DNA from: a virus
Length of the DNA: 46,538 bases
Direction: 5' to 3' (one strand)
Virus record (IMG/VR): IMGVR_UViG_3300045988_137997
Span: 1-46,538 of that record
This document shows positions 2,897 through 46,538 of the stretch, in pieces. Within the stretch, counting starts at the first letter, position 1. Every line of letters begins with the position of its first letter. Below the pieces are notes generated by a model. It did not search any database. It worked only from the letters and a program-made list of their open reading frames with translations, and was not told the origin of the DNA. Position numbers and translations under genes: made by a program.

Positions 2897-2919
2897 AGCG
2901 GACAACTCCTTCAAAAATT

Positions 2920-2949
2920 AAGGCTCCCAGACACACGTCAAGGAGCCTT
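2920..2949 (+). promoter_or_regulatory. Hairpin that can sequester the SD of the second recombinase gene
   Basis: AAGGCTCC (2920..2927) is a perfect complement of GGAGCCTT (2942..2949). The second arm contains the AGGAG SD of the ATG at 2953. Confidence 0.35.
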
Positions 2950-2952
2950 GCG

Positions 2953-4095
2953 ATGACACTCACTACAAAACAAATTCAAGCTTTAAAACCGCGCGAATCG
3001 CGCTACTCAATCGCCGACGGCAACGGTCTGACCCTGCGCGTTCAGCCGTCCGGATCTAAGTCCTGGGTCTTCAGGTCGCACCATTCCGGCCGCATCACAG
3101 ACGAGACCATCGGCCACTGGCCTGAGATGAGCCTCAAGCAAGCCCGGATGATCGTCCGCCGGCGTCGCAAAGATGCAGGCCTTAAGCCGCCATCCGGGTA
3201 CGTGCTCAACGACGCCTTCAGGCTGTGGTGCGGCCTGAAAAAAGGTCGAATCGCTTCGTACAAAGAAGAACGACGTCGCCTCGAAAATCACGTCATCAGA
3301 GCCTTAGGACGCAAGCAAATCGACGAGATCACCGCGCCACTGATCATCAGCCACGTCCTTCCTATCGAGAGAGCCGGCAATCAGGCCACACTCAAAAGAA
3401 TTCTCATGCGTATGCGCGAGATCATGAATCTCGCTGTTTGTGCTGGCTACCTCCAGCACAACCCACTTGAACGCGTTTCGATGGTTTTCGCACCACCTGA
3501 GGTCGAGCCGATGCCGTCCGTGCACTGGTCTCGGATGATCGATGTCTGCCGCTGCTTTCTCGATGCTCCAGTCCGCACGCAGATCCTCTTTTGCTTTTCA
3601 GCGTGTTCGATGCTCAGACCGTCCGAAAACGCAAAGTTGCGTTGGTCCTGGATCGAAAATGACATCCTCACGATTCCTGCCGAAGAGATGAAGAAGCGCA
3701 AGGCCTTCCGTGTGCCACTTACACCCTTCATGCAGCAGATACTGGACGCCGCTAAACGACACTCTCGGCATCCACGATCTGACTATGTTTTTCCCGGGCG
3801 AACATCTGGCACGCACGTCAGCTCGCAATGTCTGGCCAAATACCTCCACACCACCGAGCTTTCCGGCAAGCTTGTCGCACATGGCTTGCGCTCCATGGCC
3901 CGAAGTTTCCTTGCCGATCGGCAAGCCCCCTTCGAAGCCGCCGAAATGTGCCTGTCTCACACCGTTGGCACAAGCGTCTCTCGGGCATATCAAAGAAGCG
4001 ACTACCTGGACGTTCGGCGCGATCTCATGGCCGCATGGAGTGACTATTTTTCAGGTTGTGCCGACAGTGCCGGCTTGAATCTCGATTTTCCATAA
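2953..4095 (+). CDS. Second tyrosine recombinase (P4/DUF4102 type); candidate tail-fibre shufflon invertase
   Basis: Arm-domain motif GLTLRVQPSGSKSWVFR. Catalytic R (MLRPSEN), HxxR (AHGLRSMARSF), H...Y (LSHTVGTSVSRAYQRSD). Lies directly beside the fibre cassettes. Confidence 0.85.
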   Translation: MTLTTKQIQALKPRESRYSIADGNGLTLRVQPSGSKSWVFRSHHSGRITDETIGHWPEMSLKQARMIVRRRRKDAGLKPPSGYVLNDAFRLWCGLKKGRIASYKEERRRLENHVIRALGRKQIDEITAPLIISHVLPIERAGNQATLKRILMRMREIMNLAVCAGYLQHNPLERVSMVFAPPEVEPMPSVHWSRMIDVCRCFLDAPVRTQILFCFSACSMLRPSENAKLRWSWIENDILTIPAEEMKKRKAFRVPLTPFMQQILDAAKRHSRHPRSDYVFPGRTSGTHVSSQCLAKYLHTTELSGKLVAHGLRSMARSFLADRQAPFEAAEMCLSHTVGTSVSRAYQRSDYLDVRRDLMAAWSDYFSGCADSAGLNLDFP

Positions 4096-5422
4096 GCCAC
4101 GGGCTTTTTCTCGCACATGAAGAGCTGCAGCCCTTGTGCCAAGCGCAGGGGCTTCGCACCTCGCTAGAGACTGACTTTCGAGGCGATTTCGACCTCAAAA
4201 AATGACTGCTCGTAACTGGACCTTTAGTCAGCTGTGCGTAGAAACTGGCATCAGCTGCAAACCCCCATTTGAGTCCGTGAAAGACTTCTCCATCAACATA
4301 TGGGTTACGCACATACATGTTGTATTCACGGCGGCCATCGTTTCGTGATGCGAGCTGTATGTATGCAATTCGATCGCCGTTTTCAGCGTAAACGGAATGT
4401 CCGTTAAATCTAGAGACATCGGGAATTGAATCATTCGAATCAACGGTTTGAGTCGATTCGATGACGGGAGCATGCGGGCCAAGCTTCAAATTGGCAGCCA
4501 TGCTGGTGCTGCCGTCCAATGCTAGGAATTTTGAACGGGTCCAAGCCGCTGTCACAGCTTCATCACTTGAGGCCTCTGCCAGTGGCCTGGGAACAAAGAA
4601 GGCCCTGTTTCCATTGGCTTTATATTCAAGAAACGCATGAGCATTGTTTTCGCTACCGCTTACGTTTTCGTACGAAAAAAACTCTAAGCGCGTCGATCCA
4701 TCTGTACCCGTTCGGAGAGTGATAACCCCGAGCCGCTCTTCAATGTCACTATCCCACCATTGAATTTGCCTATGGGAGACGTTTGATTTGTCCCCCTTAC
4801 TCACATAGCAAACTAACCCTAAATCGTTTTTAATGGATTTTTTACCAGTAACGAGTTCATTACCATCCAAGTGAACAACATTATTATCTTGAGCAATCTT
4901 GAACCACTCAGACCACTCACTCCCGTTTTTCACTCGGTAGAAAATGACGTTCGGCGTAGTTTGCTGAACACTCATTTGCCAAGCTACAGGACCGGCAGCA
5001 AATCTTCGATGTACGTGAATCAAAAGACCTGTGTAGTTCTGCGCCTGTTCACCTTTCGGTGAGTTTGCGACGTTGCTAGAGCATGTGTAGAAACCTGTGG
5101 CATCGACGTCATTCAAGTCCCTTGATGGGTAGGCATCAGACACATCTACAGCCGTATTAATACCCCCGGCAAGACCGTAACGACGAATCAACTTCCAGAC
5201 CCAAGAGGCAGGAACGATGTTCGAAGTGTTTACGTAATCTGCGGGCGTTTTGACCGTGCCGCCGCCATTCAAACTGGCTGCTCCAGTTACTTTCAGGCCC
5301 GAACTGAAAGTAACCGGAAAAGCCATAGTTGAGGACATCGCTATCCGCGGCAGTTCAACCGATTTCGCAGGGGATAGAGGGCAAATCGGCGATTGCCAAG
5401 ACGTCAATGACATTGACTTCAA
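4025..5422 (-). CDS. Silent tail-fibre cassette Sv3 (functional part about 4205..5296)
   Basis: Fibre-like sequence begins at the LKVTG site (5283..5296) and stops resembling fibre right after PVTSS (4205..4221). The remaining ORF to 4025 is low-complexity and antisense to the recombinase 3' end. The N-terminal extension to 5422 is antisense to Sv2. Confidence 0.6.
   Translation of the reverse strand: MKSMSLTSWQSPICPLSPAKSVELPRIAMSSTMAFPVTFSSGLKVTGAASLNGGGTVKTPADYVNTSNIVPASWVWKLIRRYGLAGGINTAVDVSDAYPSRDLNDVDATGFYTCSSNVANSPKGEQAQNYTGLLIHVHRRFAAGPVAWQMSVQQTTPNVIFYRVKNGSEWSEWFKIAQDNNVVHLDGNELVTGKKSIKNDLGLVCYVSKGDKSNVSHRQIQWWDSDIEERLGVITLRTGTDGSTRLEFFSYENVSGSENNAHAFLEYKANGNRAFFVPRPLAEASSDEAVTAAWTRSKFLALDGSTSMAANLKLGPHAPVIESTQTVDSNDSIPDVSRFNGHSVYAENGDRIAYIQLASRNDGRREYNMYVRNPYVDGEVFHGLKWGFAADASFYAQLTKGPVTSSHFLRSKSPRKSVSSEVRSPCAWHKGCSSSCARKSPWLMENRDSSRHCRHNLKNSHSMRP
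4205..4221. repeat. PVTSS-coding site, copy M1
   Basis: ACTGCTCGTAACTGGAC is identical over 17 bp to 8532..8548 and inverted relative to 6357..6371. Confidence 0.5.
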
Positions 5423-6728
5423 TGACTACACTCATTCTGGGGTTTGGAAGGTAGGAGGAACCTATCAAAATGCCGGAGCTTTTGGGAATGTCGGTGGTTT
5501 TTTGATCGTCCACAGCAATCGCGCCCATAACTACTTCTTTCAAATCTTCGAGAGAACACTGAATTCTGACCAGCTCCACATCAGAACCTACCACGGTTCT
5601 TCTGGCTGGCAGCCCTGGCGCAAGGTTATCTTGGAAACTGGCGGTGATTTGACGGGCGACCTCTCGACGACCGGCTCTTTCACGTCGTACAACATCCGCG
5701 GCTTTCGGCATCAGTACAGCGGCATTGACCGCGATGTAATTCCATCGTCGCAACAACAAATCTTTCCGTATGCCTTGCTCGATAAAAACGGCAAAACCGT
5801 TTCGATGTACAAGGTCATTCAAAACACCAGTGGAGGCATTGCCACTCAGATCGGCACGGTTCGGTCTGGTGATGACGGTGAGACTGAGTACGCACTGGTT
5901 GAGATTGGTTTCGATAGCGAGGGAGTCGCATACGCAAACGTCCCCAGCACGCCAAATGACGCTAACAACAATCGCGCTGCAACCTCAAAATTTGTCAACG
6001 ATCGGATCAGCGCACACGATGCGACATTGGTTCACACAACGGGATCTGAAACCATCAGCGGGTCAAAAACGTTCGAGAGCCCAGTTGTGAGCAAAGCGGT
6101 TTCGCTGATCCAAAGCACGAATTGGAGCGGGATTCGACTGAATGATACGAGTCGAACTAGTGATTCGACCAAGATGCTTGCTCAAATCCTTGATGCTGAT
6201 GGGAAGCGATGGATTGGGCTGGAAACCACGGCAAGCACTGATGGCAGTCGAACTGTGCAGTTAATTGGCCGCAATCGAGACGATACAGCCTGGCTCAATT
6301 TCATCAAGTTTTGGGAAAGAGCTGATGGAACGTACAACGTTTATTTGGCTCGAAATCCGGTTACGAGCAGTAACGACTCTAGTATCGCAACCACCAAGTG
6401 GGTCAACGATAAGTTGGCTGATTCGTCTATCACCGGCGAGGCAAAACTTGTCGAGACTTGGCACGACGGGGCCTCCTGGTATCGCATCTGGTCTGACGGC
6501 TTCATTGAACAAGGAGGCCAGTTTGAGTACGACACAAAGTTAAAAACCTACCACAAAGCTTACACATCCACCCCGAATGTTCAGATCAGTATGACTTTGA
6601 CAACATGGGGCTTAAATGACGATGGAGGTCTCTTCTTCCAATCGGGTCCTGACAAAAATGGGTTTTCTGTTAGAGGAAACGGGGACGCACTTGCCGGCAC
6701 GGTCTACTGGACCGCTAGAGGCTATTAG
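5250..6728 (+). CDS. Silent tail-fibre cassette Sv2 (functional part 5304..6728)
   Basis: Starts at the inverted LKVTG site. Contains fibre modules shared with Sv1 (NPVTSSNDSSIATTKWV). Ends ...GTVYWTARGY, like fibre 2 (YWMAIGY). Opposite strand to the expressed gene, with no credible own start. Confidence 0.65.
   Translation: MTVPPPFKLAAPVTFRPELKVTGKAIVEDIAIRGSSTDFAGDRGQIGDCQDVNDIDFNDYTHSGVWKVGGTYQNAGAFGNVGGFLIVHSNRAHNYFFQIFERTLNSDQLHIRTYHGSSGWQPWRKVILETGGDLTGDLSTTGSFTSYNIRGFRHQYSGIDRDVIPSSQQQIFPYALLDKNGKTVSMYKVIQNTSGGIATQIGTVRSGDDGETEYALVEIGFDSEGVAYANVPSTPNDANNNRAATSKFVNDRISAHDATLVHTTGSETISGSKTFESPVVSKAVSLIQSTNWSGIRLNDTSRTSDSTKMLAQILDADGKRWIGLETTASTDGSRTVQLIGRNRDDTAWLNFIKFWERADGTYNVYLARNPVTSSNDSSIATTKWVNDKLADSSITGEAKLVETWHDGASWYRIWSDGFIEQGGQFEYDTKLKTYHKAYTSTPNVQISMTLTTWGLNDDGGLFFQSGPDKNGFSVRGNGDALAGTVYWTARGY
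5283..5317. repeat. Head-to-head pair of LKVTG-coding sites (S1 5283..5296, S2 5304..5317)
   Basis: CCAGTTACTTTCAG-gcccgaa-CTGAAAGTAACCGG. S1 is identical to S3 (9643..9656). S2 is its inverted copy with 13/14 identity. Confidence 0.7.
6357..6371. repeat. PVTSS-coding site, copy M2 (inverted)
   Basis: CCGGTTACGAGCAGT is the reverse complement of the M1/M3 core with one mismatch. Confidence 0.45.
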
Positions 6729-6766
6729 CAGCGAAGGCCGCTTATTTGTTGAGCGGCCCCATTCGC

Positions 6767-7339
6767 TTACAAACACTCAGGCTTCTTTGGCCACATAACA
6801 TCAAGTGGGAAACCATCTTGCTGCGGCACATCGCGCAGCGCCTGGCGATAGACCTTTACGGCTTCGCGTTCTCCTTCAGACAGAGGATAGTCCGGCATGA
6901 CAAGATGGTCGGTCTCTGCCAGAAGCGCATCGCGCTGCGCCCGGACCTGTGCCGACGCTTCCGCCTTGACCTCTTCAGGCGTCTTTTCAGGGATCGCCTC
7001 GACGCTCCAGGACAGGTCTTTGCCTCGAGCCAGTCGATGCGTTTTGCTCCCGGCTGTGAGCGCCACAAAGAGCTTCTTCAATGTGTAGTCGTGAGGTGTT
7101 CTTGACTCATGTGCAACCACCATGCCAACGCACTCTTCAGGTGTAGTCGGGATCTTTTCTTCGAGCCACTTCTCGCCATCAAACCGGTAGAAGCAATCTT
7201 CCTTGCACGCCGGCGCAATTGTCGTGCAATTGTCCGGCATTGAAATAATTTCGCGCGTTACGTCATCAACTTGCGCGATAGTCGTTCCTGCGAAATAACC
7301 TTTTGAATCGTATTCATATACGTCAATTAAATTTTCCAT
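6767..7339 (-). CDS. Tail fibre assembly chaperone (Tfa)
   Basis: C-terminal motif DHLVMPDYPLSEGEREAVKVYRQALRDVPQQDGFPLDVMWPKKP is the classic Mu U / P2 G type. ATG at 7339. Confidence 0.8.
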   Translation of the reverse strand: MENLIDVYEYDSKGYFAGTTIAQVDDVTREIISMPDNCTTIAPACKEDCFYRFDGEKWLEEKIPTTPEECVGMVVAHESRTPHDYTLKKLFVALTAGSKTHRLARGKDLSWSVEAIPEKTPEEVKAEASAQVRAQRDALLAETDHLVMPDYPLSEGEREAVKVYRQALRDVPQQDGFPLDVMWPKKPECL

Positions 7340-7360
7340 TTTTAATTCCTTTATCAATAA

Positions 7361-7582
7361 CCGAACATCACTGGAGTTTGGTCTACAACTGGATATTCAA
7401 GAGATTCAATGCTGGCATACGGTGCTATATCTCACGAATATACTGGTCGTAAAAGTTCTGATGGACAAAACAACGTTGCTGGCGAACTAACTTTTGATGC
7501 TTCTCGTTGTAGTTCCGTTTTTGGTAAATCATCCGAAATCCAACCTCCCTCAGGCAAAGCCTTATGGATAATCAAGGTGTAA
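7361..7582 (+). CDS. Silent fibre-tip cassette A (73 aa, no start codon)
   Basis: Begins CCGAACATCAC (PNITG), is preceded by an in-frame TAA, and ends ...FDASRCSSVFGKSSEIQPPSGKALWIIKV*. Confidence 0.7.
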   Translation, partial: PNITGVWSTTGYSRDSMLAYGAISHEYTGRKSSDGQNNVAGELTFDASRCSSVFGKSSEIQPPSGKALWIIKV

Positions 7583-7801
7583 CCGAACATCACGGGTTAT
7601 ATCGGTGGCGGCGGACAGTCTGGCAACACAATTTATGGAGGCGCGTTCTACAACTATGGGCAAAATCAAAATACGGCAGATGACGGAAATTCGACCGTGC
7701 CGGTGATTGGTTTCGACGCAAGTCGTAGTTCTGCTGTGTATGGGGCCTCAGACGTTATTCAGCCTCCTTCTGGAAAAGCTTTATGGATCATCAAAACCTA
7801 A
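7583..7801 (+). CDS. Silent fibre-tip cassette B (72 aa, no start codon)
   Basis: Begins CCGAACATCACGGG directly after the TAA of cassette A. Ends ...FDASRSSAVYGASDVIQPPSGKALWIIKT*. Confidence 0.7.
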   Translation, partial: PNITGYIGGGGQSGNTIYGGAFYNYGQNQNTADDGNSTVPVIGFDASRSSAVYGASDVIQPPSGKALWIIKT

Positions 7802-7804
7802 TTT

Positions 7805-8014
7805 CCGAACATCATAGGCTCGTTCGTGGCTCACTACGGCAACAACCCTGTTTCCGGAGCTTTTTACAAGACCGGTACGGGCCGCTCAAAAAGCGGTACT
7901 GACAATGACGGCCAGGCGATTTCTTTCGATGCCTCATTGTGCAGCTCCGTATACGGTGCCGCAGACGTGATCCAGCCACCAGCCGGAAAGGCCTTGTGGA
8001 TCATCAAACTTTAA
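7805..8014 (+). CDS. Silent fibre-tip cassette C (69 aa)
   Basis: Begins CCGAACATCA (PNIIG) 3 nt after the TAA of cassette B. Ends ...FDASLCSSVYGAADVIQPPAGKALWIIKL*. Overlaps tail-to-tail with the expressed tip. Confidence 0.7.
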   Translation, partial: PNIIGSFVAHYGNNPVSGAFYKTGTGRSKSGTDNDGQAISFDASLCSSVYGAADVIQPPAGKALWIIKL

Positions 8015-10238
8015 TGATCCAAAGTGCTTTGCCTGCCGGTGGTTGGATGATGTCCGAAGAGCCATAGATAGGGTTACACAGAGAGGCATCGAACCCCATC
8101 TGGTAGACATTGGTATTGCCACCATCACCAGCGCCACCATTCTGTGTGTCCATACCGTAATACGCGCCTTCGGTGTTGTATCGATCGCCGTATTTGAACG
8201 CGTGGCCACCGTGTGTACCCGTGATGTTCGGTGCACCACTTTTGAGATAAGTGCCGACCTCTGATGCAGCGTTGGCTCCCATCACTGTGCGATTGCGCCA
8301 GTCAGGCAGTTTGAAGGTCGTGGAGCCATCGCCGGCACCCCAGGCCGTACCGATTGCCGCAAAAAGCTTGGCATACGTAGTGCGGCTGATCGTGCCCCCA
8401 TTGCAGGCCATAAAGCCCGATGGGACAGTCTTGCCCGCATATGGAAAGGCCACCCCAGATGGGATGGCCGAACCGAGACCTGCTTTAAAAAGTGCCCGTA
8501 CCCAGGCAGTCGTCGCAATCGAGTTGTCGTCACTGCTCGTAACTGGACTTTGACTCACCTTAAAGTAAGCGTTGCCGGCATTGTCTTCGGCGATTTGGAG
8601 AAAGTTTATCCAGCCAGAGTTATCCCGCCGTCTAGCAGTAACTTGAAATGTCCGACTTCCTTCGGTATTTGCCGTGCTCTCCAACCCCATGAACCGAAGT
8701 CCATCTTTGTCTATAACTTCGCAAATGGTTCGGTTAGCTGTTTTTGCACGAGAAGTGTCGGCAATGCTGACTCCTTCCCACGGAACGCTCTTTATGAACG
8801 TACTGGATGCGGATAGCAAAGATGAAGTGAATGTCTTGGCACCGTTGATTTTTTCAGCGTTGACAGTGTGAACTAACTGGGACTGCTCGGCATTCCAAAT
8901 ATAGGAACGAAGCCACCTTGTGGTGACAACTTCATAACCGTTCGATGTTTCTGCTGGGGAGTGATTGGCTCGAACATATCGAGTTCCATCTGCCCGATGA
9001 CCTATCTCCAGGCTGCTCCAGTCGCCATCTTCGTTATCAGCGTTGTAAAAATTGATATCGGACAGCACTACAGTGGTCTCACCTGATGCATATTGGAAGT
9101 GCTTGAGAAGCAATCCGCCTTTCCCGTTTTTGTCCCTATATCTGGCAAACCAAGTCTGCGTAGTGGTTTCGGGGACTTTCGTGAAATCTTGGTCTGGGCG
9201 TACCACTTCCAACCCAGTTGACGCATAGACATTGATCGGGCGATAAAATTTTTTCCACCCATTTATTTCTTCGTCACCAGTTAGGTGGACAAAAGCATTG
9301 TTTGCCCACTTGGCCGTGATCAGCGTATGGTCATTCACTGAAGCCGATGGGCTATCGGCAGCAATGATCCGGACTTCCTCGTTCGCGTATTCCTTGATTG
9401 TTAAGAACAGACGCCATGAAGTATTTGCTCGATTTCGACCATTGAAACGCAGGTCTCGGCTGCCGTCCTGGTTAAAGTAGGCTTCTTCAGAGATAAGTGC
9501 AGCACCATCTCTATCCGCAATTCTGTAAACAATGATGTTTTTCGAAGAATCCCGTTCAGTATCAGAAACGCTTACATCAGATCTACTGCCGAAAAGCCAT
9601 TGGTTTGTATTGAATGTGATTCGGTTCCCGTGTGCAGCTTGACCAGTTACTTTCAGTAACCCGCCGATGGTGGCATCACCGTTCGCCTGAAGAGCCTCAA
9701 GAGTGGTCTTGCCGTGGACGACCAAGTTTCCGGAAACATCTCCATTGCCGTTCAGGTCAAGCTCTGTGGCCGTGACTTTCTTGGCCGAAACTGCCTGCAA
9801 AGTGCTCGCGCCATTGACTTTCAGCGTGCCACTGGCCGAAATGTTCGTCGCATTGACGGCGGCCAAAGTGCTCGTTCCGGTCGCCGTGATGCTCGTGACA
9901 TTCAAACCACCTTGCGCATTCAAGGATCCCTTGATGGTGGCAGCTCCGCCCACCACAAAAGTCCCGGACACATCACCATTGCCATTGATGTCGAGATTCG
10001 TGCCAGTGACCTTGCCAAAGCTCACGTCGCCAAAGCGAGTCGCTGCGGTCAACCCCTGATCAACCGACTTCGGCGCGTTGCCGGACCCCGTCCGGATCAG
10101 CTTGCCGGCCACCTGATCAGCCATCAGTTGCTTGTATGCCTGATCCGCAACAGCCACTTTGTCGGACGGCATGGCGTCCGTTGACATAAGTTCGGACGAA
10201 AAAAAAGCGCGTTCGGACGCGCTGTAGTAGTAAGCCAT
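8004..10238 (-). CDS. Tail fibre 3 (expressed isoform: constant N-module + Sv1 + tip D)
   Basis: 744 aa. Contains G-x-L-x-V-x-G repeats, repeated ..SIATTAWV.. fibre modules, and a tail-collar-type domain (FPYAGKTVPSGFMACNGGTISRTTYAKLFAAIGTAWGAGDGSTTFKLPDWRNRT). Good SD. Confidence 0.85.
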   Translation of the reverse strand: MAYYYSASERAFFSSELMSTDAMPSDKVAVADQAYKQLMADQVAGKLIRTGSGNAPKSVDQGLTAATRFGDVSFGKVTGTNLDINGNGDVSGTFVVGGAATIKGSLNAQGGLNVTSITATGTSTLAAVNATNISASGTLKVNGASTLQAVSAKKVTATELDLNGNGDVSGNLVVHGKTTLEALQANGDATIGGLLKVTGQAAHGNRITFNTNQWLFGSRSDVSVSDTERDSSKNIIVYRIADRDGAALISEEAYFNQDGSRDLRFNGRNRANTSWRLFLTIKEYANEEVRIIAADSPSASVNDHTLITAKWANNAFVHLTGDEEINGWKKFYRPINVYASTGLEVVRPDQDFTKVPETTTQTWFARYRDKNGKGGLLLKHFQYASGETTVVLSDINFYNADNEDGDWSSLEIGHRADGTRYVRANHSPAETSNGYEVVTTRWLRSYIWNAEQSQLVHTVNAEKINGAKTFTSSLLSASSTFIKSVPWEGVSIADTSRAKTANRTICEVIDKDGLRFMGLESTANTEGSRTFQVTARRRDNSGWINFLQIAEDNAGNAYFKVSQSPVTSSDDNSIATTAWVRALFKAGLGSAIPSGVAFPYAGKTVPSGFMACNGGTISRTTYAKLFAAIGTAWGAGDGSTTFKLPDWRNRTVMGANAASEVGTYLKSGAPNITGTHGGHAFKYGDRYNTEGAYYGMDTQNGGAGDGGNTNVYQMGFDASLCNPIYGSSDIIQPPAGKALWIIKV
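8221..8235. repeat. PNITG-coding site D in the expressed gene (inverted relative to A/B/C)
   Basis: The reverse complement reads ACCGAACATCACGGG, identical over 15 bp to site B. Confidence 0.7.
8532..8548. repeat. PVTSS-coding site, copy M3
   Basis: 17-bp identity with M1, inside sequence that is otherwise only about two-thirds identical. Confidence 0.5.
9643..9656. repeat. LKVTG-coding site S3 at the constant/variable junction of the expressed fibre
   Basis: CCAGTTACTTTCAG is identical to S1 and in the same codon phase as S1 and S2. Confidence 0.7.
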
Positions 10239-10250
10239 ATCTATACCTCG

Positions 10251-11162
10251 TCAGTAGCCGATTGCCATCCAGTAGCTCGAAACGCCTCCATTGCCGTTGT
10301 GCTTGAAGGCTGCGTTGCCTCGCTTGAGCGTCGACAGCGCGAAAGTCGGCGCAAAGTTCCCTTTAGCCTCTGCGACTGCAAAAACGGCCTTGGTTGGAAA
10401 AGCCACCGGGAAAGCGATCACGCTGTTTCCGTTCGATGCCAGCGTCGCCTGCCCCCACTGCAGAATCAGGCCGTTCGGCAGCTTCTGCATCCCCCAGTCG
10501 CCATGCGCCTTCAAAAAGGCAGCCAGAAGGTTTGCCGGAGTCAAAGCCTTGGTCTGATCCTTGCCGGCCGCCACTTCGGAGGATGTCGCAATGCGGATCA
10601 AGCCGGTGCGCCCGGTCGTAGCTGTGCGAGCCGACAAGGATGCGCAGGTGACGACACGTGTGGCATCCGTGCCCGTGATGGTCTCTTCGTTCGTCGCCAG
10701 CTCGACCACGCCCAGCGTCGACGTCGTCGCCGGCGGGTTCAAAAGGTTGGCGTCACCAAAAATGACTTGGTCGGCACTGAAGTCCGTCACCGCGATGTCG
10801 ATGGCCAGCATCGAAATGGCCATCGCCGACTTTTGCAGAATCGGCGTGTTTTGCGAGTAGACAGCAAAGAGAGTGCCCTTGTCGGTATACAGCCCAACTT
10901 CGTAGACCGTATAGGCGTCATCCGTACTATCCTGCACCGTGCAGTGGATGATATTGTCGGCCACTGCACCGCCGGCGACCGTTGTCAGTCGCTTAAACTC
11001 GGCCTGGAGCTGAGTCTGCTCAGGTGTGGCCGTGTACTGTCCGGTCCCGTATCCGACTTCAGTAATCAAAACAGCATCTGTGCCGGCTTGCGACGCGGCC
11101 ACTACCTCATCGAGGCCGGCCTGCGTGATGATCATTTTGAGTTCGTTTGCAGTATCGGGCAT
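10251..11162 (-). CDS. Tail fibre 2 (P2 H-like collar N-domain, gp53-like C-terminus)
   Basis: N-terminus is paralogous to fibre 1 (IITQAGL...YTVYEVGLYTDKGTLFAVYS). GTD..A.TP fibre repeats. C-terminus LILQWGQ...FPVAFP...YWMAIGY. Confidence 0.8.
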   Translation of the reverse strand: MPDTANELKMIITQAGLDEVVAASQAGTDAVLITEVGYGTGQYTATPEQTQLQAEFKRLTTVAGGAVADNIIHCTVQDSTDDAYTVYEVGLYTDKGTLFAVYSQNTPILQKSAMAISMLAIDIAVTDFSADQVIFGDANLLNPPATTSTLGVVELATNEETITGTDATRVVTCASLSARTATTGRTGLIRIATSSEVAAGKDQTKALTPANLLAAFLKAHGDWGMQKLPNGLILQWGQATLASNGNSVIAFPVAFPTKAVFAVAEAKGNFAPTFALSTLKRGNAAFKHNGNGGVSSYWMAIGY

Positions 11163-46177: not shown

Positions 46178-46538
46178 GGCCGGAACAAGCAAAAAGTTGA
46201 CACAGGCGGACGTGCGAAAACTCCCTGACGGAAATCACAATTTCGGGGGCGGTTTGTACCTTCGCGTGCGAGGAAGCTCGCGCACGTGGTCGGTTCGAAT
46301 TCAGGTGGAATCAAAACGGACTTTCCGAGGTTTGGGCAATGCGTTCGCAATTACCTTGAGTCAAGCCCGTATCGAATGCGAAAGGCAGAAGTCGGCGATG
46401 CGCTCTGGCGACCTCCAGACAAAGGCCGAGAAGGCTCGAGAAGAACGCAGAAAAAACTTACCCAAGACGACCTTTAAGTCTGTCTGGTTGAAAGCGGTAG
46501 AAGCTCGTGAGCGTGTAGCGGGCTGGAAGAATGATGAT
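46176..46538 (+). CDS. int: Tyrosine integrase, N-terminal arm-binding part (continues at position 56 after the overlap)
   Basis: My own translation: MAGTSKKLTQADVRKLPDGNHNFGGGLYLRVRGSSRTWSVRIQ... (DUF4102-type). It runs off the window end in frame with 5..901. Confidence 0.85.
   Translation, partial: MAGTSKKLTQADVRKLPDGNHNFGGGLYLRVRGSSRTWSVRIQVESKRTFRGLGNAFAITLSQARIECERQKSAMRSGDLQTKAEKAREERRKNLPKTTFKSVWLKAVEARERVAGWKNDD
46484..46538. repeat. 55-bp terminal overlap identical to positions 1..55 (circular-assembly signature)
   Basis: Exact identity checked base by base. The overlap lies inside the integrase ORF and preserves its frame. Confidence 0.9.

Follow-up and report, generated by a model that had tools for sequence, protein, structure and literature searches.

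In a stretch of viral DNA of 46,538 nucleotides (nt) from IMG/VR (record IMGVR_UViG_3300045988_137997, positions 1 to 46,538; this whole stretch is "the window" below), the region 4206-9656 is likely to be a shufflon with three tiers of sites, by which a phage remodels the third of its tail-fibre genes through a 380-amino-acid (aa) recombinase encoded beside it, a reading to which we give a probability of about 0.8. Re-assembly of the fibre probably proceeds by DNA inversion. Read along its operon, which runs on the minus strand, the fibre is composed of a constant N-terminal module, a site that we call L, a middle module ("mid"), a second site, P, and a tip, and this tip is either short (tip2) or of a Collar type, in which a base (tipbase1), a third site, N, and a 74-aa cassette are followed by a chaperone gene, tfa. 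Three mids (one expressed, one silent in a head-to-head arrangement and one parked by the recombinase), two tips and four cassettes make up the inventory of the window. Their order along the operon is constant module, L, mid1, P, tipbase1 (the Collar part), N and cassette c0, followed by cassettes c3, c2 and c1 (inverted), tfa and an inverted tip2 that leads through P and mid2 to L; then come a spacer of 7 bp, another L, mid3, P, a non-coding flank and the recombinase. An earlier, sequence-only reading of this DNA had already proposed that 14-bp sites coding LKVTG link one constant fibre module to alternative whole distal modules, named Sv1 to Sv3, and we consider it partly supported, that is, right in essence and incomplete.

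The L sites are where that proposal is on its firmest ground. The 14-mer CCAGTTACTTTCAG occurs exactly at 5283-5296 and 9643-9656 on the plus strand, and its inverted copy (CCGGTTACTTTCAG, minus strand, with one mismatch) at 5304-5317, 7 bp from the first. At up to two mismatches the L core has four matches in the window against 0.19 expected, a number reached in 0 of 100 shuffles. The 744-aa fibre encoded at present (8004-10238, minus strand) carries GGLLKVTG at residues 191-198, which ends at 9642; the rightward frame from 5304 begins LKVTGKAIVED and stops at 6728, the leftward frame from 5296 reads LKVTGAASLNGGG, and these two silent frames (Sv2 and Sv3, respectively) stand head-to-head, as had been described, neither having a start of its own at the site. 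Site-specific rather than homologous exchange had been argued from the shortness of the shared sequence, and this stands: homology among the three L copies stops almost immediately, with arms that reach 21-22 nt at 86%, and when 23 distinct L sites are compared over related loci, 19 different flanks occur on the module side, which carries no information. On the opposite side these 23 instances show only three position-specific contexts, namely the constant module or the 7-bp spacer in either orientation (relative to the recombinase, the spacer lies one way in five other loci and the other way in four), and the homology of related loci to the window begins or ends exactly at 9642/9643. The fourth match of the L core, at 9811-9824 (CCATTGACTTTCAG, two mismatches, coding LKVNG), lies inside the constant module, where its flanks are unchanged in all loci and it is never a junction, so that it is in effect a decoy, or negative control. 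That the L sites are true junctions of fibre-module exchange in nature is something we hold with greater confidence than the reading as a whole.

What does not hold is the idea that whole distal modules are the units exchanged at L. Repeat analysis and comparison with related contigs brought out further sets of sites, of which the P sites (CCRGTTACGAGCAG, coding PVTSS, with the consensus CC[AG]GTTACGAGCAG), starting at 4206, 6357 and 8533, cut the supposed distal modules in two, each yielding a tip and a mid of about 350 aa, and these two parts shuffle independently. The N sites (CCNRTGATGTTCGG, coding PNITG, with the consensus CC[CAT][GA]TGATGTTCGG) swap the 74-aa tip cassettes, and head both the three silent 222-bp cassettes (7361, 7583 and 7805, minus strand) and the expressed one (8218, plus strand). 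The silent cassettes code alternative C-termini (...ALWIIKV/T/L) and their N sites are inverted with respect to the acceptor; that of c3, CCTATGATGTTCGG, codes PNIIG and occurs in three contexts elsewhere. Sv3, taken earlier for a whole distal module, proves to be a mid only, for beyond its P site the frame enters non-coding DNA and then the antisense of the 3' end of the recombinase gene. The Sv3 open reading frame (ORF) overlaps that 3' end by 71 bp (4025-4095).

The sites of all three tiers belong to one family, in which a shared arm, CCNRTKAY, is followed by 6-7 nt specific to the tier: CC[AGC]GT[TG]AC-TTTCAG for L, CC[AG]GTTAC-GAGCAG for P and CC[CAT][GA]TGAT-GTTCGG for N. The generic pattern CCNGTKAYNNNSRG, expected 1.1 times in the window, is matched there 13 times, nine of them within 4206-9656. 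The P arm lies on the opposite coding strand from the L arm, so that every mid is bracketed by inverted arms, and since one arm is thus read on both coding strands it cannot stem from protein conservation; there must be a constraint on the DNA as well. In a set of 40 different N sites, which between them have 25 left-hand and 25 right-hand flanks, the information is near zero just outside the 14 nt; with both sides at background and no dyad partner for CCNRTKA, the site is asymmetric. Positions 3, 4 and 6 are polymorphic, and their variants always go with the flank on the module side, wherever the module sits, so that the exchange falls to the right of position 6. Each genome has uniform cores, which differ from those of other genomes even at synonymous positions, while the arm is constant across the family. 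For example, among related loci (numbered from L001), L038 has L cores of ...ATTGAG and P cores of ...GGGCAG, L060 and L065 have N cores of ...ATATTCGG, with Asn coded AAT, L040 has a core of ...ATGTTGGG, and in L067 the core ...CGGCGAG occurs in a back-to-back pair.

It is straightforward to carry out the inversions in silico, and all of them keep the reading frame. Inversion between L sites (5304-9656) produces an uninterrupted 668-aa fibre of constant module, mid2 and tip2 that ends in ...YWTARGY, and leaves tfa, tip 1 and the cassettes of that tip facing away from the operon, just as had been foreseen for a fusion to Sv2 with Sv1 facing away. Inversion between P sites (6357-8546) gives a fibre of 687 aa, and those between N sites give 742, 741 and 738 aa. 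An inversion between the outer P sites (4206-6370) followed by one between L sites yields a 676-aa fibre of constant module, mid3 and tip2; because 5283 and 9643 are direct repeats, mid3 reaches the constant module only after this P step, and the L sites alone would not suffice. With three mids, each combined with tip2 or one of four cassettes, 5.5 kb of DNA can specify 15 in-frame fibres.

How do these predictions compare with nature? We looked up contigs that encode the exact recombinase and tfa proteins, scanned IMG/VR and, in addition, searched metagenome contigs with a pattern that covers the L site in all three contexts, which together gave about 40 independent loci. The fibre of L015 (676 aa; constant module, mid3 and tip2) is identical at 668 of 676 residues to the product of the two-step inversion; the copy of mid3 that lies there between the constant module and tip2 has 99.3% identity, and the L015 DNA and the window so rearranged are colinear for 4439 bp. 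The architecture predicted for the L inversion also exists: L012 has an expressed 668-aa fibre of constant module, mid and tip2, together with a Collar-type module, cassettes and tfa on the other strand, where a module like mid3 is fused to the Collar tip, and a module like mid1 is parked. A search with the in-silico protein of constant module, mid2 and tip2 found natural fibres of 723-725 aa that are 98% identical through the constant module and mid2 and then continue into a Collar tip; its abundant hits of 707-709 aa may be the locked form described below. In L063 and L064 mid2, the mid of Sv2, is 99.4-99.7% identical to that of the window from the L site to the P site and is joined to the constant module and to tip1, in a flanking backbone only 89% identical to the window, and these steps in identity at L and P mean that the breakpoints are exact.

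Across 41 mid instances, which fall into 25 clusters at 90% identity or more, one and the same mid may be parked, silent or expressed, and may be joined to tip 1, to tip 2 or to a tip of a third type. Thus mid2 is parked in L045 and joined to tipbase1 in L055, a 93%-identical copy of mid1 is joined to a distant constant module in L028, tip2 is joined to at least six different mids in other loci, and the right flank of the parked P site, tcattttttgagg, to at least nine. Tip cassettes change places likewise, c0 holding silent positions in L012, L016 and L020, and tfa is always convergent with tip2. Cross-tier junctions, with an L-type core in a P-type context or the reverse, were absent from the junctions examined. 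The mids compared above are 99.3-99.7% identical (L063 and L064 against 5303-6377, L015 against 4205-5296) in neighbouring backbones at 89-94%; modules that are more conserved than their backbones, with boundaries at the sites, suggest exchange of modules between phage genomes or lineages.

It might be argued that all of this is evolutionary mosaicism, in which conserved LKVTG, PVTSS and PNITG peptides merely offer short homologies to general or phage recombination and nothing is switched by programme. The LKVTG peptide does occur in shufflon-less relatives with a fixed 709-aa fibre, many of the differences between contigs separate lineages at 89-94% backbone identity, related phages encode RecT-type and Sipho_Gp157 recombination genes, and isomers within one clone have not been seen. 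Yet 14 bp is very short for homologous exchange, and the breakpoints are exact in dozens of independent junctions; protein conservation does not explain P and L arms on opposite coding strands, nor synonymous core positions that are uniform in each genome and different among genomes; the LKVNG near-copy at 9811 is never used; the silent modules are promoterless, in frame and laid out as inverted pairs; contigs break on the sites; and the recombinase is always adjacent, with DNA sites that decay where it is truncated. We therefore regard mosaicism alone as unlikely.

The ends of the contigs deserve attention in this respect, because they bear on whether the alternative arrangements are real. 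Of the true contig ends, 32 fall in the region or adjoin it; 10 of these lie within 2 nt of a site and a further five inside a site copy (L018, L020, L061, L065 and L066). L019 is a tip block cut at both P sites with an identical 2-nt overhang, as expected if the sample contains the block in both orientations. Two contigs assembled with k = 141, L004 and L016, end 130 and 133 nt after an L site, which means that the last shared 141-mer starts inside that site, and an assembly graph with k of 31-141 that is broken at a 14-bp repeat must have met alternative junctions in the reads. Contig ends on sites are thus indirect evidence of mixed populations. One could counter that the arrangements are chimeric paths through metagenome graphs, given that the comparison sequences are all metagenome contigs, that a shared module of 1 kb cannot be phased by short reads and that a constant module and mid joined to the recombinase flank could be mis-joins. 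However, each junction is backed by k-mers (31-141) far longer than the 14-bp site, so the junction types are real; the same types are met again in independent samples that were assembled in different ways (MEGAHIT, SPAdes, Logan and IMG/VR); and branching at the 14-bp site itself needs real alternative junctions in the reads. An assembly artefact seems very improbable to us.

Two kinds of reduced locus are also informative. In collapsed loci, which are frequent (L002, 11073-12890; L003, 3797-5626; L004; L054; proteins P0186, P0187 and P0192), the constant module and a mid run through the P site straight into the recombinase flank, and the resulting fibres, of 605-609 aa, have no tip and no tfa. 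In locked relatives (L023, 8001-10130, which equals L041) the recombinase is cut to residues 1-71 and a single fixed 709-aa fibre gene is followed by tfa; the locked fibre lacks PVTSS, the P motif, and its LKVTG is coded TTGAAAGTAACCGG, with the Leu codon changed to TTG.

This brings us to the enzyme. The recombinase adjacent to the array, on which the sequence-only reading had counted, is encoded at 2953-4095, and in all loci long enough to show it, it is full-length, 96-100% identical and separated by one mid from the back-to-back L pair, a linkage that also holds in 7 of 7 loci found via the L site alone. It has the architecture of P4/CP4-57-type integrases, with arm, middle and catalytic domains and active-site residues: R222, H310, R313, H336 and Y346 are invariant in the recombinase alignment and, by their position in the motifs, are assigned as the probable catalytic residues, the protein ending 34 aa after Y346. 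It matches CP4-like integrase arm domains in PDB (3jtz/3ju0) and the integrase family phrog_1 in PHROG, and scores 169 bits against the NCBIfam model PRK09692, below the cutoff of 434. The enzyme is thus an integrase paralogue of the P4/CP4-57 type, and no relative of the R64 recombinase Rci beyond the superfamily. Homologues at 61-77% identity lie 80-160 nt from the first site of similar arrays in other Sutterellaceae prophages, and one at 94% is found in L038. Beside the 77% homologue of L040 lies an array of 5.5 kb in which at least 15 N-type sites (CCNGTKATGTTGGG) are accompanied by tfa and a Collar fibre, the homologue of L067 (64%) lies by a back-to-back site pair, and those of L060, L061 and L065 have 61-62% identity, the contigs of L065 and L066 ending inside the first site. 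A prophage in a metagenome-assembled genome (MAG) of Sutterella wadsworthensis combines a 61% homologue with Mu-like baseplate genes and N sites of ...ATATTCGG, and in a second sample the same module flank is joined to another position.

Might the inversions be programmed by some other enzyme, such as the separate 402-aa integrase of the phage, an Xer-type enzyme of the host, another tyrosine recombinase or an invertase that works in trans and escaped detection, the 380-aa protein being an ordinary second integrase? Its complete P4/CP4-57-type set of integrase domains would fit, and trans-acting invertases are known (Mpi of Bacteroides is cited in PMC6109161). Even so, in relatives the 380-aa gene lies about 2.7 kb inside the prophage end, beyond the lysis genes, and a separate integrase of 399-402 aa is found at the presumed attachment (att) end, a position that argues against a role as the att-site integrase. 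The gene also stays 80-160 nt from the first site among homologues of 61-100% identity, in two tail-gene backgrounds and with differing tiers, and its truncation coincides with a locked fibre. We give this alternative little credence. No Resolvase-type domain, the mark of a serine invertase, was detected in the scanned ORFs and called genes, and a tblastn search with a Gin sequence returned nothing significant.

If the shufflon reading is right, the 380-aa recombinase would bind the common arm, CCNRTKA, and exchange strands within the next 7 nt or so. Since tyrosine recombinases need matching overlaps, L would pair only with L, P with P and N with N, the three junctions would shuffle independently and always in frame, and inversion between inverted sites of the same tier would give the 15 fibres, while the second arm of the site need not be conserved, as in the sfx sites of R64. 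On this view the inversions would be frequent events within a clone, with the 380-aa protein as their catalyst.

There are, of course, points that weigh against this reading, and we would not wish to understate them. The postulated cleavage positions and the incompatibility of the tiers would follow other tyrosine recombinases by analogy, and for an invertase it is unusual to have the architecture of a complete integrase, arm-binding domain included. The exact constant-mid2 junction predicted for the window's own backbone (TGGCTTTTCCGGTTACTTTCAGTAACCC) is absent from IMG/VR. A look-up of the exact fibre-2 protein led to only three assemblies, which share the window's exact backbone and seem to represent one phage; apart from one extra cassette, they are arranged as the window is, so that no isomer on the same backbone emerged. 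The comparison was made on contigs, and two orientations in one clone were not directly seen. Much of the variation among contigs is between lineages with backbones 6-11% apart and therefore also reflects exchange between genomes, not inversion within one. Finally, the collapsed loci have the structure expected of a deletion between direct L or P sites, so that the system would not be strictly inversion-only. The extra cassette just mentioned is silent, occupies 357 bp of L001 (15070-15426, against window 8002-8021), an assembly 99.9-100% identical to the window and of the same phage, and has an N site at L001 15412; it points either to a cassette truly gained or lost or to a collapse by the assembler.

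It is useful to ask where such a system would stand among those already described. The R64/IncI1 shufflon (Rci, sfx, pilV) resembles it in that several invertible segments give alternative C-termini to one constant N-terminus, that a tyrosine recombinase gene sits at one end of the array, and that inverted pairs lie back-to-back a few bp apart (8 nt in R64, 7 nt here), a likeness of layout that the sequence-only reading had rightly drawn. The sfx sites are short and asymmetric, with one conserved arm and a core (PMC11852207), and here too an asymmetric core has one conserved and one variable arm. The differences are that the conserved arm is on the module side here, that the target is a phage tail fibre and not a pilus adhesin, that there are three nested tiers with different cores rather than one, and that putative deletion products are common here. 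The sfx sequence (GTGCCAATCCGGTNNNTGG, read from R64 itself) has 0 matches in the window at up to three mismatches. Whereas the window protein has arm and middle domains, Rci has only a Phage_integrase domain (residues 122-275 of 384) and a C-terminal extension that the window protein lacks. Homology to R64 Rci was considered and rejected, BLASTP giving 22% identity over 175 aa of the catalytic domain at E = 0.07.

Serine invertases of the Gin type act at sites of about 26 bp with an enhancer. In the Gin, Cin, Pin and Min systems (Mu, P1, e14 and p15B; for a gin shufflon in FRphi, see PMC13418256), inversion likewise fuses a constant part to alternative variable parts, and a chaperone gene lies inside the invertible segment, as tfa does here (6767-7357). 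They differ in that the enzymes are serine invertases, with none detected in the window, and in having one junction per fibre where there are three here. A switch of fibre presumably changes host range.

Among published systems, those closest in kind are the Rin shufflon of Bifidobacterium prophages (PMC6109161) and the BV01-like shufflon of Phocaeicola phages (PMC13596623). The former is phage-encoded, with a predicted tyrosine recombinase flanking promoterless receptor-binding cassettes opposite a constant part, and in the latter a phage-encoded recombinase flanks promoterless variable cassettes for tail fibres or receptor binding. Both are described with short directional sites of 10-11 bp and with isomers among genomes and reads (PMC6109161 and PMC13596623). 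The Rin enzyme, in contrast, is armless and XerD-like and acts in Gram-positive siphophages at a single 11-bp type of site, rix (TTCCCTAACCC; PMC6109161), and the BV01-like system has one tier, three cassettes and six isoforms (PMC13596623). The present system combines an integrase of the Arm-DNA-bind_3 type, hosts among the Betaproteobacteria, a P2-like baseplate (Mu-like in some relatives), three tiers and one arm. The rix site is absent from the window.

Engineered heterospecific lox and FRT sites offer a different kind of comparison, since the same arm with incompatible spacers allows orthogonal reactions by one enzyme, and cassette exchange works on a module placed between two such heterospecific sites. 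Those sites were designed artificially, whereas here the analogy is one of sequence only. The multi-tier logic also recalls the hsdS shufflons (pneumococcal ivr/SpnD39III with CreX/PsrA, and Mycoplasma pulmonis hsd with HvsR), where one tyrosine recombinase serves several distinct sets of inverted repeats in one gene and N- and C-terminal specificity modules are recombined independently, with a combinatorial output. Their repeats, however, are unrelated and of very different lengths, the target is a DNA-specificity subunit and the recombinases are small and armless. PsrA-type invertases are listed next to their inversion targets in PMC9881135. A full-text literature search found no account of this Sutterellaceae system or of an arm-domain integrase as a fibre invertase.

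We are more tentative about a wider proposal, for which we would offer a little less than even odds. According to this, one family of integrase-derived recombinases in Sutterellaceae phages would use the arm CCNRTKAY with tier-specific overlaps as heterospecific sites, giving up to three orthogonal inversion tiers per gene, and mids bracketed by L and P would in addition be exchanged as cassettes between co-resident phages, which would keep a shared pool of at least 25 mids moving more freely than the backbones.

The phage itself can be described briefly. The window ends share an overlap of 55 bp (1-55 and 46484-46538), and the window is therefore a circularly closed, complete phage genome of about 46.5 kb. 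It is that of a temperate phage, with a CI-like repressor, replication genes, a methylase, lysis genes and P2-like baseplate genes, which are followed on the minus strand by three fibre genes, the shuffled one being the third. There are two tyrosine recombinases, only 26% identical to one another: the gene for the 402-aa integrase straddles the window ends (3' part at 5-901) and adjoins the early genes, and that for the 380-aa protein sits between the lysis block and the fibre region. Close relatives are prophages in human-gut metagenomes, integrated beside rpsF-priB-rpsR-rplI-dnaB and adjoining genes of Duodenibacillus (Sutterellaceae). Their flanking ribosomal protein L9 is identical to that of a Candidatus Duodenibacillus intestinavium MAG, and the host was named from this protein because scans of species-representative genomes, with the constant module and then with the recombinase alignment, gave no relative. 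A megablast of 2900-10300 against GenBank phages and complete Escherichia coli genomes had no match, and a search for homologues with the constant module alone recovered only fragments cut off by contig ends.

Several further observations concern individual parts of the locus, whose coordinates are collected in Table 1. The 3' flank of the recombinase is conserved in all loci up to 4220. Conserved accessory (arm-type) sites were sought downstream of the recombinase gene, and only a GC-rich inverted repeat was common to the closest relatives; by eye in the alignment it lies at about 4130-4155 and is conserved in the window, L038 and L040. The mids have no informative Pfam domain. The end of Sv2, YWTARGY, had been likened to fibre 2, and some 22 residues are indeed alike, although the resemblance is limited to these and is not significant (BLASTP E = 0.28). 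The tfa gene as called encodes 190 aa, and a look-up with a 196-aa start was unsuccessful. Residues 1-60 of the fibre (window 10059-10238) match the N-terminal part of phrog_188, annotated as a tail fibre assembly protein (E = 2.6e-9). A DUF7338 protein (2330-2914) is encoded next to the recombinase and divergently from it, and a Sutterella prophage has one too (L060, 3036-3593), close to its homologue of 61% identity; nothing ties it to the shufflon.

Table 1. Coordinates in the window of the recombinase gene, the sites and the fibre modules
Feature	Position	Strand	Remarks
380-aa integrase-type tyrosine recombinase, putative shufflon recombinase	2953..4095	+	Pfam Arm-DNA-bind_3, Phage_int_M, Phage_integrase
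Recombinase 3' flank, no fibre coding ("junk")	4096..4205	.	right-hand context of parked P site
P site	4206..4219	-	CCAGTTACGAGCAG, PVTSS, distal end of parked mid
mid3 (Sv3 of the sequence-only reading)	4220..5282	-	parked next to recombinase
L site a	5283..5296	+	CCAGTTACTTTCAG, LKVTG, head of mid3
7-bp spacer GCCCGAA	5297..5303	.	between back-to-back L sites
L site b	5304..5317	-	CCGGTTACTTTCAG, head of mid2
mid2, silent	5318..6356	+	N-terminal part of Sv2
P site	6357..6370	+	CCGGTTACGAGCAG, between mid2 and tip2
tip2, short tip ending YWTARGY	6371..6728	+	no chaperone in its orientation
tfa, chaperone for Collar-type tip	6767..7357	-	Pfam Phage_tail_APC, PHROG tail fibre assembly families
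Silent 74-aa tip cassettes c1-c3	7360..8012	+	N sites 7361-7374, 7583-7596, 7805-7818 (-); 222-bp period
Expressed tip cassette c0	8004..8217	-	
N acceptor site	8218..8231	+	CCCGTGATGTTCGG, PNITG, in expressed fibre
tipbase1, Collar-domain base of tip 1	8232..8532	-	Pfam Collar
P site	8533..8546	-	between mid1 and tip 1
mid1, mid expressed at present	8547..9642	-	
L site c	9643..9656	+	end of constant module
Constant N-terminal fibre module	9657..10238	-	aa 1-193, then LKVTG

Switching of phage tail fibres by inversion is classical, and phage shufflons with tyrosine recombinases have already been reported, the Rin and BV01-like systems among them. What is new here is the nested three-tier design, in which the shaft-proximal, middle and tip parts of one fibre are recombined independently. 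If one enzyme serves all tiers, this would be a natural equivalent of heterospecific lox/FRT sites and, if true, would furnish a toolkit of orthogonal and very short (14-bp) sites that are able to sit inside coding sequence, as well as an example of an integrase with an arm-binding domain that has come to serve as an invertase. Human-gut metagenomes commonly contain the system, carried by phages of the poorly cultured Sutterellaceae, and assemblies break exactly at its sites, which matters for the assembly of viromes and for the prediction of host range. Near-identical modules in diverged backbones suggest, in addition, that the same sites drive the exchange of receptor-binding modules between phages.

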